Of a stretch of DNA of 64,000 bases, positions 5,968 through 61,731 are shown in pieces (within the stretch, counting starts at the first letter, position 1; every line of letters begins with the position of its first letter). The notes beneath the pieces are model-generated. The model ran no database searches, was not told where the DNA came from, and saw only the letters and a program-made list of their open reading frames with translations. Source of the DNA: Bacillota bacterium. Its GTDB lineage: Bacteria; Bacillota; Clostridia; Oscillospirales; Acutalibacteraceae. Both the position numbers and the translations under genes were made by a program. The stretch is taken from NCBI GenBank assembly GCA_023458755.1, contig JAEWYE010000058.1:7505-71504 (forward strand). Reading direction: 5' to 3'.

Positions 5968-6267
5968 GGTACTTACCGTTCTTTCTTTTCAAATAAAAAG
6001 CTTTGCCCAGTCCAGTGAAGCCGAATCCCATCTAAATTTGACGGGAAAGGGCAAACTATTATAATTAAGACTCAATGCATTAAAAATCTACGGGCATTGA
6101 TGCAGATTTTTTTCTGTGCTTTTATTGGAGATTTGTGTTATTTATTCATACTATATAAAATTTTCTGGATTTTATGTTCGTATTTCTATTATAATCCAAT
6201 CTTTATAAATTGTAAACGAAGCAAAACTTTGCTATAATAGATACAATTCATATGATTTTTCTATGAC

Positions 6268-6370
6268 ATAGCCATTTGATTTGAAAACAGAGCCAATCTC
6301 CAAGCGTAAAATCCACATATCAAAGATTTAGCGCTTGTTTCTTGGATGTTTTCTAAAGTTAACTGGCTAT
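6268..6370 (+). repeat. Copy 1 of a ~103-nt imperfect-palindrome repeat family (candidate structured sRNA or MITE/REP-like element)
   Basis: Aligns along its full length, at high identity, with 28091..28193 and 53441..53543. Termini atagcca/tggctat are inverted. An internal stem gcgtaaaatc/gatttagcgc is present. Confidence 0.8.
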
Positions 6371-6409
6371 ATAAGAATAATAAATCTATGCATTGAGGGG
6401 GTATTTATC

Positions 6410-28013: not shown

Positions 28014-28090
28014 AACAGCAAAGATCGAAATTCCGAATGATACAGAACCACCTGGGACTGCTTATTGTCCGGGTGGTTCTTGCTATACAT

Positions 28091-28193
28091 ATAGTCAGTT
28101 GATTTGAAAACAAGACCAATCTACAGGTGCAAAATCCATCTATCAAAGATTTTGCGCTTGCCTCCTGGATGTTTTCTAAAGTTAACTGACTAT
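28091..28193 (+). repeat. Copy 2 of the ~103-nt imperfect-palindrome repeat family
   Basis: Full-length alignment to copies 1 and 3. Compensatory changes keep the stems paired (atagtca/tgactat; caaaatc/gattttg). Confidence 0.8.
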
Positions 28194-28270
28194 ATAAAAA
28201 TAAAGTATGGTATAATGAACATCATGGGCAGGATGGATACGGGATACTAAGAAAAGCAGGAGGAACGAGC

Positions 28271-35964: not shown

Positions 35965-36212
35965 CTTGTTCTATCGTTCATGTATATGCAGGGAGAGGGC
36001 AGGAATATGAAAAGATATGTGCATATATCTTATGAGGTGGAATTGCTTACTAAAAAATTTTCTGTACTTCAATTTATCTACACGATTAGCTTTTAGATTA
36101 ATTTAGAAAATGATTGGTAATTATAAGAAAATTGAATTATTAATAAGACAATATTGATTATAATGAAGTATATTTATAAAAAAATATATATTATGTAAAA
36201 GGATGTGCGAAA

Positions 36213-37793
36213 ATGTCGATCTATTTCAGTAAACTACTGAATTTCTTTAAAAAGCATTTCTCTCTCATTTTGATTATATTGTTTAGTATTACCATCATTC
36301 CTATACTGGTGGTTTCAATCTTTAACTGGGCAGCAGGCGATGATTTTCGTTTTAGTATACAAACACATCAAGCAATGACGGCATCAGGATTTCCCGTTTT
36401 CAATGTCATAAAAGCAGCAGCGGGGATTGCTGCAGGCTCCTATTTTCAGTGGCAGGGAACTTATTCTGCCATTTTTCTAATGGCTCTGCAGCCCGCCATA
36501 TTTTCGCCAAGAGCTTATATTGCGGTTACATTTATCTTAATGGGAGCATTGCTATTCAGCACGGTTTATTTGCTAAATACAATTCTTTCCAAATGCTTTC
36601 ATTTGGAAAGAAAATATATTATATATATTGCGGTTCCCATGCTGTTTTTACAGATTCAGTTTGTTCCTGCACTGGTTGAAGCGTTTTATTGGTATAATGG
36701 CGCAATATATTATACTTTTTTTTACTCCATCATGCTCTTATATATCAGTCAACTCATGCAAATTTATTTCAATAAAGACAAGAAATATAAGAAAGCTTTC
36801 ATTCTTTCCATTGTTTTAGCAATCGTACTGGGTGGGGGGAATTTTGTTACTGGGATCCTAACAACGCTGATTGGTTTGTGTTTTGTGGCTTTTTCGTTGA
36901 TCAATCATTCGACACAAACCAAAAGAACGATACTCCTTGGACTTACGGAGGCTATTCTCCTGATTTCGTTTGCTGTTAGCATCGTGGCACCAGGAAATTC
37001 TGTGCGGCAGCAATTATCAACCAAATCGAGTCTGTTAAATACAATTGGCAACAGCATTGGTCAGGCTGTAAAGGATATTAAGAATTGGACCACTCCGACT
37101 GTCATCATTATATGTTTGTTATTGGTCCCCGTAATAGTAAAAATAGTAAAGCAAACCGATTTGCAATTTCGTTGGCCAGGAATATGGATTGGCTTTACTT
37201 TTTTACTATTTGCCGCCCAAAATGCACCGCCATTCTATGCACAATCCTTTGCTGGGCGAGGCAGATTACGCAATATTGTTTTTTATTCTTTCATTTGGTT
37301 TGTCTTTATTAGTCTGTTTTACGGTATTGGCTGGCTTCAAAGGACATATTCGTCAGCGTTTTCCAGACTCTACAACTCTATAACAGAAAAATTTACTTCA
37401 AAAGAGATTCGTTCAACCAAGAATGCAGTATTATCGATTCTTGTCGTTTTACTTGTAGCGGTAAATTTAAGAACAGCGACTCTCAACAAAATCAGCAGTG
37501 TTATCTGTTCTTCCGACCTCATCACCGGAAAATCTGCGGCTTACAGCAAACAGCTCAGTGACCGACAAAGCATTATTGATAATCCAAACATTGATGTAGT
37601 AAGAATTCCTGCCTTAACGGTATACCCGGAGAGCATAGCGGCCGACGAAATAACCTATGATGAAAATAGCTGGAGAAATAAAAGTATGGCGATTTTTTAT
37701 AATAAAAAATCCATCGTAAAATACAATAAACCGGTTGCTAAACAGGCAACGCCTAAGAAAGCAACCCCACAAGAGCCGGTCATGCTGAACTGA
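36213..37793 (+). CDS. Polytopic membrane protein, GT-C-glycosyltransferase-like (paralog A of 60154..61731)
   Basis: About 11 TM helices and a DD motif (WAAGDDFRF) in the first extracytoplasmic loop after TM1. The ~100-aa soluble C-terminal domain has no known catalytic signature. Confidence 0.7.
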   Translation: MSIYFSKLLNFFKKHFSLILIILFSITIIPILVVSIFNWAAGDDFRFSIQTHQAMTASGFPVFNVIKAAAGIAAGSYFQWQGTYSAIFLMALQPAIFSPRAYIAVTFILMGALLFSTVYLLNTILSKCFHLERKYIIYIAVPMLFLQIQFVPALVEAFYWYNGAIYYTFFYSIMLLYISQLMQIYFNKDKKYKKAFILSIVLAIVLGGGNFVTGILTTLIGLCFVAFSLINHSTQTKRTILLGLTEAILLISFAVSIVAPGNSVRQQLSTKSSLLNTIGNSIGQAVKDIKNWTTPTVIIICLLLVPVIVKIVKQTDLQFRWPGIWIGFTFLLFAAQNAPPFYAQSFAGRGRLRNIVFYSFIWFVFISLFYGIGWLQRTYSSAFSRLYNSITEKFTSKEIRSTKNAVLSILVVLLVAVNLRTATLNKISSVICSSDLITGKSAAYSKQLSDRQSIIDNPNIDVVRIPALTVYPESIAADEITYDENSWRNKSMAIFYNKKSIVKYNKPVAKQATPKKATPQEPVMLN

Positions 37794-51515: not shown

Positions 51516-51681
51516 TTTTTGCAATTTATAATATTGGTTTATCCATCAGTTGTTCGATTGAAAGAACTATACTGAATCAGAAAGGCGTAAGGTATAGCTT
51601 TATATCTTTACGCCTTTCTCTGTTTTGTTTCCAAATCAAATCTGGGGGAAGATTTGGATAAGCATTGAAAGGGGATTGTAT

Positions 51682-53361: not shown

Positions 53362-53440
53362 ACAGATTCAGCATTCAAGAAAAGTGACCTCCAGTCATAG
53401 GAAAGAGCTATGGCTGGAGGTTTTCGATGTTATCGAAATA

Positions 53441-53543
53441 ATAGTCAGTTCATTTGAAAACAAAACCAATTTCCAAGCGTAAAATCCATATATCAAAGAT
53501 TTTACGCTTGCTTCTTGGATGTTTTTTAAGGTTAACGGACTAA
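53441..53543 (+). repeat. Copy 3 of the ~103-nt imperfect-palindrome repeat family
   Basis: Full-length alignment to copies 1 and 2, with a perfect internal stem aagcgtaaaatc/gattttacgctt. It lies just downstream of the MCP terminator hairpin (53386..53425). Confidence 0.8.
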
Positions 53544-53784
53544 AACAACATGCCGAAAGGAAAGACTTTTTGGATATTGGCAGACGTACGAATATTATAG
53601 AATGAATATTAACACATAATTCTTATTAGTGATTATAAAATGGTCAATCTGCGCTAAAGTTGTAACATATCACAATAAAATATGCAGAACAATATGAAAT
53701 CTATATAAAACACAAACTATTTTTGGGAAATCTATTGCAAAGCACAGAACGGTGTGCTACTATATAGGCAGTTGATTGAAAACG

Positions 53785-59954: not shown

Positions 59955-60153
59955 AAGTTTATAGTGCAAGTTCGGTGGCGATTTGGTTGATACCTTTTGC
60001 CACCGGTTTTTTATCTCAAGTTTCCATTATCGTTTAAACGATTATACATCAGCGGAATAAAATAATTGTAATTCTAATAATAAATTAAAACAGGATTGAT
60101 ATTGCTTATAATAAAATTCGATAATTTCAATATATTTTAAAGGATGTGCGAGA

Positions 60154-61731
60154 ATGTTAACCCTTTTCAATACACTAAGAAATTTTGTCTTCAAGCATTT
60201 ATCTCTTATTTTAATAATTCTGTTTATTATGAGCATTGCACCTCTTCTTGTAATTTCAATATACAATTGGCCGTCTATTGATGATTTTCGTTTTAGTATT
60301 CAAACACGTCAGGCACTGTCAGCAACAGGATTTCCTGTTCTCAATGTAATTAAAGCTGCAGCCACTACTGTTTCCAGCTCCTACTATCAGTGGCAAGGGA
60401 CTTTTTCCGCTATTTTTCTAATGGCTCTGCAGCCTAATGTATTTTCCGCCAGAGGCTATATACTTGTTCCAATCATATTGCTAGCCTTCTTAATATTTGC
60501 AACATTTTATTTGTTAGATACAATTATTATTAAGCATCTGCATTTGGAAAGAAAGTATCTTGTTTATATTGGCATACCAATGCTTTTTTTGCAAATTCAG
60601 TTTGTTCCTTCAACAGTACAAGCATTTTACTGGTATAACGGAGCAGTCTATTATACTTTCTTCTATTCTTTAATGTTACTATATATCAGTGAATTAATTC
60701 GAATTTATTTCAGTAAAAATAAATATATAAAGAGTTTGGTTGTTTCTATTGTTCTTGCCGTTGTATTGGGTGGTGGCAACTTTGTTACCTCTCTGTTGAT
60801 GTCGCTGATTGGTGCATGTTTTATTGTGCTGTCTATATTCAGCCATGCGAAACAATCAAAACGAACAGTATTCCTTATATTACCTGAAGTTACTCTGCTG
60901 ATTGCATTTGCAATTAGTATGGTTGCTCCCGGAAATTCAGTCAGACAAGCGTATTTTACAAAATTAAGCCCACTGCGGGCCATATACCAAAGTATTGTTC
61001 AGGCTTTGACTGACATTAAAAATTGGACGACCCCTACGGTTATCATTATTTGTTTACTGTTAATTCCGGTTATGGCTAGAATTGCAAAAAAGATTCATTT
61101 GTCATATCGTCTACCGGGAATTTTATTGGGAATTACATTTTTACTATTCGCTGCTCAGAATACTCCTACCTGGTATGCCCAATCTTTTGTTGGACCCACC
61201 AGATTGAGAGATATTATTTTTTATTCGTATATTTGGGCCCTTTTTATAAACCTCACTTACTGGCTCGGCTGGTTTCAAAAAACGTATGCATCGTCCCTGT
61301 CTGAATTACGAAATTTATTGAAAAATCGGTTTCATCCACAAGAAATTATTTCCACTAAAACCTTCGTTTTATCACTTCTTCTTGTTTTATTGATTGTTAC
61401 AAATTTAAGTTCTGCTAATCTGAGTAAGGTAAGCAGCTTTATCTGTACTTCCGATTTGCTCAGCGGAAAAGCCGCTGCTTACAATAAGCAGCTTGGTGAA
61501 AGACAATTAATTTTGGATAATCCGAGCATTGAAGAAGTAAAAGTGCCTGCCATAACTGTTTTCCCAAAAAGTTTATATTTAAGTGATATGTCAGGTGATC
61601 CACAATATTGGACGAACAAAAGTCTGGCTGCATTTTACAATAAAAAGTCGGTTCAAACATACAGTATCCCAGTAGTAAAGCCATCAGATAAAGCTCAAAC
61701 CACTAGTGATGAGCCGGTAATATTTAAGTGA
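60154..61731 (+). CDS. Polytopic membrane protein, GT-C-glycosyltransferase-like (paralog B of 36213..37793)
   Basis: About 55-60% amino-acid identity to the 36213 gene along its full length, with the same WxxxDDFRF loop motif. The nucleotide-level similarity extends into the 5' UTR (aaaggatgtgcgaRaatg). Confidence 0.7.
   Translation: MLTLFNTLRNFVFKHLSLILIILFIMSIAPLLVISIYNWPSIDDFRFSIQTRQALSATGFPVLNVIKAAATTVSSSYYQWQGTFSAIFLMALQPNVFSARGYILVPIILLAFLIFATFYLLDTIIIKHLHLERKYLVYIGIPMLFLQIQFVPSTVQAFYWYNGAVYYTFFYSLMLLYISELIRIYFSKNKYIKSLVVSIVLAVVLGGGNFVTSLLMSLIGACFIVLSIFSHAKQSKRTVFLILPEVTLLIAFAISMVAPGNSVRQAYFTKLSPLRAIYQSIVQALTDIKNWTTPTVIIICLLLIPVMARIAKKIHLSYRLPGILLGITFLLFAAQNTPTWYAQSFVGPTRLRDIIFYSYIWALFINLTYWLGWFQKTYASSLSELRNLLKNRFHPQEIISTKTFVLSLLLVLLIVTNLSSANLSKVSSFICTSDLLSGKAAAYNKQLGERQLILDNPSIEEVKVPAITVFPKSLYLSDMSGDPQYWTNKSLAAFYNKKSVQTYSIPVVKPSDKAQTTSDEPVIFK

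Follow-up and report, generated by a model that had tools for sequence, protein, structure and literature searches.

Three copies of an imperfect palindrome of about 103 nt lie scattered among unrelated genes in a 64,000-nt stretch of clostridial DNA, and they raise the question of whether such a repeat is a structured RNA of the cell or a mobile element that has settled between its genes. The stretch, called the window in the following, corresponds to bases 7433-71432 of a 274.7-kb metagenome-assembled scaffold (ENA ERZ28600514, LEMO22-1 scaffold_16), and its proteins are closest to those of uncultured Oscillospiraceae-type Clostridia near Caproiciproducens and Acutalibacter. In the initial annotation, the repeat was taken as a candidate structured small RNA or a MITE/REP-like family, and base changes that keep the copies paired were read as a sign of selection on secondary structure. 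The evidence makes it very probable that the repeat is a mobile element of the MITE type, small, non-coding and ending in inverted repeats, which landed between genes. No earlier description of this repeat family was found.

The copies had been placed at 6268-6370, 28091-28193 and 53441-53543, all in the same orientation on the + strand, and alignment and pattern searches confirm this arrangement. Copies 2 and 3 align without gaps to copy 1 at 85% and 81% identity, respectively, as members of one family, and searches of the window with a 22-nt left-end pattern and a 23-nt tip pattern, allowing up to three mismatches, returned exactly three sites against a chance expectation of 0.00-0.01. The true unit is 101 nt long, with boundaries set by the empty sites of relatives, and the refined coordinates are 6269-6369 for copy 1 (TAGCCA...TGGCTA), 28092-28192 for copy 2 (TAGTCAG...CTGACTA) and 53442-53542 for copy 3 (TAGTCAG...CGGACTA, placed by sequence family). 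It is AT-rich (28-35% GC) and palindromic almost end to end; its ends, 5′-TAGTCAGTT...AACTGACTA-3′, are inverted repeats with 5′-TAG...CTA-3′ outermost, and the terminal end sequence is TAGTCAGTTSATTTGAAAAC. Coding capacity is absent: no conserved ORF was found when copies 1 and 2 were read, and the only short ORF, in the right arm, varies from 16 codons in copy 1 to 6 in copy 2. The window copies occur singly, 22-25 kb apart, amid housekeeping genes. An ECF-S transporter gene carries copy 1 in its 5′ leader; copy 2 stands between a terminator-like hairpin that follows trkA and a GNAT gene's extended -10 promoter, and copy 3 past the terminator-like hairpin of a chemotaxis-receptor gene, about 350 nt upstream of a sugar-binding-protein gene. 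The earlier description of all copies as intergenic, with unrelated genes downstream, therefore holds on the annotation of the three loci.

Integron attC sites are imperfect palindromes in closely spaced cassette arrays, with RYYYAAC / GTTRRRY core sites and an adjacent integrase; this identity was rejected on the wide spacing of the copies, the misfit of their ends to the core sites and the lack of an integrase in the window. A second direct repeat, 300 nt long with 75% identity and unrelated to the hairpin element, is found at 36192-36491 and 60133-60432, at the 5′ ends of two paralogous glycosyltransferase-like genes (PF19528). A covariance-model match at 51541-51650 is weak (18 bits, E ~0.1) and probably due to chance; it covers a terminator-like hairpin located upstream of the gene for the chemotaxis receptor, and the 3′ side of this hairpin (TGTTTCCAAATCAAATC) is similar to the left end of the element in reverse complement.

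At two of the three loci, relatives preserve the site without the element. For copy 2, the element is missing from a relative whose TrkA is 89% identical (L043), with the trkA hairpin and the GNAT gene's TGgTATAAT box both in place; this relative reads ACATA followed directly by TAGAATTGAAG, where the window reads ACATA, the element (TAGTCAG...CTGACTA) and then TATAAAAATAAAG. For copy 1, relatives with an ECF-S protein 87% (L045) or 77% (L046, L047) identical keep cobO, the promoter and the RBS, again without the element, and read CTATGA(T/A)A followed directly by TAAGAAT, where the window has CTATGACA, the element (TAGCCA...TGGCTA) and TATAAGAAT. At both loci, removal of 103 nt from the window gives the empty site with no indel. 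This 103-nt difference, together with the flanking dinucleotides, indicates an element of 101 nt and a target duplication of 2 bp; the surroundings of both empty sites are rich in TA, and the phase of the 103-nt insertion is fixed by the flanking dinucleotides and not by length alone. A 97-nt unit (GYCA...TGRC) with an inner TA duplication was rejected, as it needs a 4-nt indel at both empty sites.

The duplicated dinucleotide is TA on both sides of copy 2 (28090..28091 and 28193..28194), as read from the sequence and the empty site. On the right of copy 1 it is likewise TA (6370..6371), and its left partner is CA (6267..6268), at a position where the empty site reads TA (L045) or AA (L046). 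Copy 3 is flanked by AA on the left (53440..53441) and on the right (53543..53544), and this matching pair, which is not TA, speaks for duplicated target rather than for a dinucleotide that belongs to the element. Among the seven intact copies of the family, five have TA/TA flanks (copy 2 and those at L011, L022a, L023 and L024), and AA/AA and CA/TA are found at copies 3 and 1. No alignable relative was found for an empty site of copy 3, its closest chemotaxis-receptor homologue being 65% identical. The filled and empty sites are a record of recent insertions by which this uncultured gut bacterium, related to Caproiciproducens, differs from close relatives.

All three window copies contain the ends of short-read contigs that were assembled independently from the same strain (L002, L003, L036, L040, L041), and contig ends of this sort are a typical consequence of repeats. 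One same-strain assembly also carries a 153-bp insertion near ~57137 (L041:3657-3809 vs L040:3657), between ABC permease and GH77 genes; it is absent from the window and from another assembly, and is not the hairpin element. Beyond the strain, the 21-nt tip pattern was run against a single genome from each species and gave 21 genome matches, of which 12 were rejected as chance (coding or unstructured sequence, other phyla). Full-length copies were found in two other metagenome-assembled Bacillota genomes, OH_CBrB_97 with at least four (L011, L024 and two in L022) and OH_PBB_95 with a copy at L023. The two L022 copies (L022:6359-6461 and L022:7086-7188) have the same orientation, lie 727 bp apart and bracket one GDSL-lipase gene; one is intact and the other is decayed at its left end. 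The loci in these two genomes match the window in the element only: the flanks are unrelated up to the element ends, and the element length is identical. The census is small, with 8 distinct copies in total, 3 of them in about 79 kb made up of the window and 7-8 kb on each side, within which no further copy was found. A scan of JGI metagenomes with a left-arm pattern returned chance matches only, and viral contigs and phage and plasmid collections gave no real match, that in L044 being a coding-sequence coincidence.

The genes beside the copies are likewise unrelated and include those for the ECF-S transporter, GNAT, the sugar-binding protein, an AraC-type regulator, GDSL lipase, RpiR, an amidohydrolase and a dehydrogenase, among others. 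Many copies lie directly past stop codons in convergent gaps, and between co-directional genes three copies are sense and three antisense (L022a, L022b and L007). The search for further copies that had been proposed as a check has thus placed the element beyond its three original loci, in two other genomes and in both orientations relative to genes. These results bear on the reading in which the palindrome is a regulatory sequence of the host (operator or terminator/attenuator) with a separate origin at each locus or with copies made by ordinary duplication. The intergenic position of the copies near promoters and terminators would suit this reading, but a length of 100 bp far exceeds any operator, no U-tract follows the hairpin, and the neighbouring genes have nothing in common. 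Furthermore, relatives have working-looking promoters and terminators without the element, and copies of identical length stand at unrelated sites in other genomes. A host regulatory palindrome is hence close to refuted and retains hardly any probability.

Precise intergenic insertion, a 2-bp and usually TA duplication, inverted ends, dispersal to unrelated sites and lack of coding capacity are all seen in the copies. With its size below the ~200-500 bp limit of the class, non-coding sequence, terminal inverted repeats, target duplication in filled and empty sites and dispersed copies, the element has every testable defining feature of the bacterial MITE class, the partner IS aside. As a MITE, it would depend for its movement on a transposase from another locus of the genome, acting in trans and binding the inverted ends; the 2-bp, mostly TA duplication points to a putative DDE enzyme of the IS630/Tc1-mariner type. 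IS630/mariner elements use a strictly TA target, in contrast to the AA/AA of copy 3 and the CA/TA of copy 1. Neither the window nor the loci next to the other copies, about 60 kb of sequence, yielded a transposase or an autonomous element whose ends match, and for this reason we infer, rather than observe, both the mobilization in trans and the IS630-type assignment.

A different mode of spread is that of REP/BIME-like palindromic repeats, in which a RAYT (REP-associated tyrosine transposase) acts on single-stranded DNA hairpins. Like the present copies, such repeats are intergenic, palindromic, multi-copy and often just 3′ of genes, and the equal folding of both strands described below is what a DNA-level hairpin would be expected to give. 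However, REP/BIME sequences with RAYT are 20-40-nt GC-rich hairpins with a conserved 5′ tetranucleotide, arranged in inverted pairs without target duplication and accompanied by the RAYT gene, whereas the element is an AT-rich 101-nt unit with a 2-bp target duplication, has no conserved GTAG-type tetranucleotide beside a short GC-rich stem, and occurs as single copies instead of clustered inverted pairs. Nor was a Y1/HUH transposase gene found in the window or in the examined loci of the other copies. Spread by RAYT is very unlikely on these grounds. Of the earlier MITE/REP-like label, the MITE part stands, with two empty sites, non-orthologous copies and assembly breaks on its side, and the REP part gives way to the 101-nt unit and its 2-bp duplication.

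The hairpin with inverted termini, inner stem and loop that had been described for the repeat, together with the compensatory changes quoted for it, is fully present in the folds and the alignment. RNA folding turns each window copy into a single full-length hairpin of -31 to -41 kcal/mol, with z-scores of -6.3 to -8.3 and none of 200 shuffles folding as well, and folds of the three copies with DNA parameters look the same. An inner stem, GCGTAAAATC/GATTT(T/A)GCGC, surrounds the loop CCAYATATCAAA in the family. In copy 1, fold and pair counts delimit a tip hairpin at 6301..6337 of the + strand, with a 13-bp stem and the 11-nt loop CACATATCAAA; this tip hairpin contains the 21-nt motif AAATCCAYNTATCAAAGATTT common to distant relatives. 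The element forms a hairpin because its two arms are inverted copies of each other, and the "compensatory" pattern is weak evidence on its own.

How far pairing has been maintained was counted over nine family sequences, in which the outer helix is 92% paired, standard pairs make up 93.7% of the paired cells and 4 of 39 pairs change on both sides. The changes seen include terminal T-A to C-G in copy 1 and the interchange of U-A, C-G and U-G in the inner stem. The covariation score of 0.113, compared with 0.083 in shuffles, was reached by only 1 of 500 shuffles; this excess is real but small, and kinship among the copies can inflate it. Comparison with distant relatives relies on a covariance-model alignment, which leans towards structure, and MAFFT with RNAalifold over the same relatives gave misaligned arms, with the tip stem as the only part recovered. 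On the + strand, G.U mispairs outnumber A.C mispairs by 20 to 5, or 12 to 5 after one invariant U.G pair is set aside. A preference for the + strand was not relied on from these counts, as folding energies give it no backing: the strands are about equal in folding, and in 8 of 11 elements the - strand matches or exceeds the + strand. Pairing in the element seems mildly favoured, and the compensatory excess with the G.U surplus is a hint of a pairing constraint beyond simple decay. The covariation excess fits equally a hairpin of RNA, a hairpin of DNA that movement requires and arm-to-arm correction during replication of the palindrome. Selection on pairing, as claimed in the initial annotation, is thus weakly suggested by the 4 double changes and the covariation score, and these do not tell the three causes apart.

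Should the pairing reflect selection on RNA, the copies would be small RNA genes, or a cis-acting RNA hairpin, with a + polarity transcript that would work through its conserved tip loop, either on targets or by protein binding. Very stable hairpins, pairs that change on both sides with covariation above 499 of 500 shuffles, and the excess of G.U over A.C on the + strand would all be expected from such RNAs, as would a loop motif that stays unchanged in hairpins with very different arms in other Clostridia and the position of copy 1 inside a 5′ leader. Against them, no promoter-like or terminator-like site common to the copies was found, the flanks being unrelated right up to the element ends, and copies 2 and 3 stand downstream of terminator-like hairpins. 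Moreover, the element is a precise insertion with target duplication, lies antisense to its co-directional flanking genes at L022a, L022b and L007, and folds as well or better from the - strand in most cases. The comparison with Rfam that had been suggested gave nothing at the gathering score; permissive scans returned miRNA-precursor-type hairpins and SpF43 at 30 bits (cut-off 70), which were rejected as generic. An independent small RNA therefore finds no support in promoters, orientation, strand or Rfam membership, and a structured RNA under selection is an unlikely account of the family. The repeat is instead a familiar kind of genomic parasite, in a new family, and not a new regulatory RNA gene. 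For annotation, this means that a covarying repeat with the look of a structured RNA is a mobile element, and that a false lead is removed.

The tip of the hairpin has a wider distribution than the rest of the element. An identical 21-23-nt tip, AAAATCCATATATCAAAGATTTT, with the layout AAAATCC-ATATATC-AAAGATTTT, was observed at L017:1329-1438 (+), L005:2356-2465 (-), L007:1783-1888 (-) and L010:7662-7696 (+). In the metagenome-assembled L017 and L005 (Oscillospiraceae) and L007 (Ruminiclostridium), it crowns hairpins of the same size (~100 nt), paired end to end, with arms that are 38-46% identical; that of L017 folds at -63.8 kcal/mol. L010 has a shorter hairpin with the same tip, and the genes beside all four are unrelated. 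The genome search required the tip, so that its identity is partly by construction. The tip motif resembles the IHF consensus WATCAANNNNTTR only approximately, and Clostridia are generally not known to have IHF. It is conceivable, though rather doubtful, that a wider superfamily of clostridial hairpin elements, each of ~100 nt, carries the tip as a functional module. Should the tip prove invariant on arms that drift and co-vary, a transposase or a host protein could bind to it, or it could be an RNA loop with a role in the cell, and the elements that bear it would be more than decaying parasites.

As a MITE, the element may still affect the genes between which it has landed. The ECF-S gene has a promoter-like sequence, TTGTAA-17-TATAAT with an upstream TG, at 6210..6238 of the + strand. 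The placement of copy 1 in the 5′ leader, proposed earlier, holds, since this promoter and the RBS are conserved and contiguous in relatives lacking the element; copy 1 would accordingly be transcribed within the leader. Any copy inside a transcript must be predicted to form an RNA duplex of about 40 bp, and for copy 1 this would be certain provided that the conserved ECF-S promoter is active. Given its position between the promoter and the RBS, the ECF-S mRNA should carry the ~40-bp duplex, ending about 25 nt before the RBS. By analogy with Correia and ERIC elements, such a duplex could alter mRNA processing or stability, and an effect of copy 1 on the ECF-S mRNA is plausible. On its cobO side (5968-6150), the cobO/ECF-S intergenic region exceeds that of the 77% relative L046 by about 165 nt for which the MITE does not account, and this side has a TTGACG-16-TATAAT site at 6038-6065.

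The features around the other two copies belong to the host. The terminator-like hairpin after trkA (28047..28078, + strand), upstream of copy 2, was read from the sequence and was not called by a simple terminator scan; it is conserved with paired changes in the empty-site relative and is a feature of the host gene and not of the element. The extended -10 box TGgTATAAT of the GNAT gene (28208..28216, + strand) is kept in the same relative and therefore pre-dates the insertion of copy 2. Just upstream of copy 3, a terminator-like hairpin followed by TTTT (53387..53422, + strand), again read from the sequence, is a host feature after the chemotaxis-receptor gene. Copy 1, with its ~40-bp duplex in the leader of a vitamin-type ECF transporter, and copy 2, between a terminator and a promoter, offer testable cases of MITE effects on expression.

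Among known bacterial repeats, RUP, Correia/NEMIS and ERIC are closest in kind to the element, and the Correia end, too, begins with TATAG. In general, bacterial MITEs are shorter than 200 bp and AT-rich, have inverted ends and TA termini, duplicate their target and give long stem-loop transcripts, as exemplified by Correia/NEMIS, ERIC and RUP (PMC2229807; PMC3049150). Correia/NEMIS elements of Neisseria, about 105-155 bp, are cut by RNase III in their duplex RNA and can change the expression of neighbouring genes, and their longer form has a central functional motif, an IHF site (PMC2229807). They share with the present element TA ends, TA duplication, inverted ends and a long duplex when transcribed (PMC2229807); however, they come from a different phylum and are compared here by description, and no promoter created at the element ends was found at our loci. 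ERIC/IRU of enterobacteria, 127 bp long, has an orientation-dependent effect on mRNA stability and is, like the element, an imperfect palindrome, intergenic, with TA ends and target duplication, co-transcribed with its neighbours (PMC2229807). ERIC is one sequence family across genera, whereas here only the tip is common across genera and the arms differ. The third system, RUP (repeat unit of pneumococcus), is a MITE of 107 bp from Streptococcus pneumoniae and presumably mobilized by IS630-Spn1 (PMC2229807; PMC3049150). The copy number seen here is far below the ~110 per genome of RUP, no IS630-type partner was found, and the likeness is one of described features, the generic-looking SpF43 match being the only RUP-era one from Rfam. 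In those features, RUP and the element agree: both belong to Firmicutes, are about 100 bp long, AT-rich, non-coding and intergenic, have inverted ends, insert at TA with duplication and give a long stem-loop when transcribed (PMC2229807; PMC3049150).
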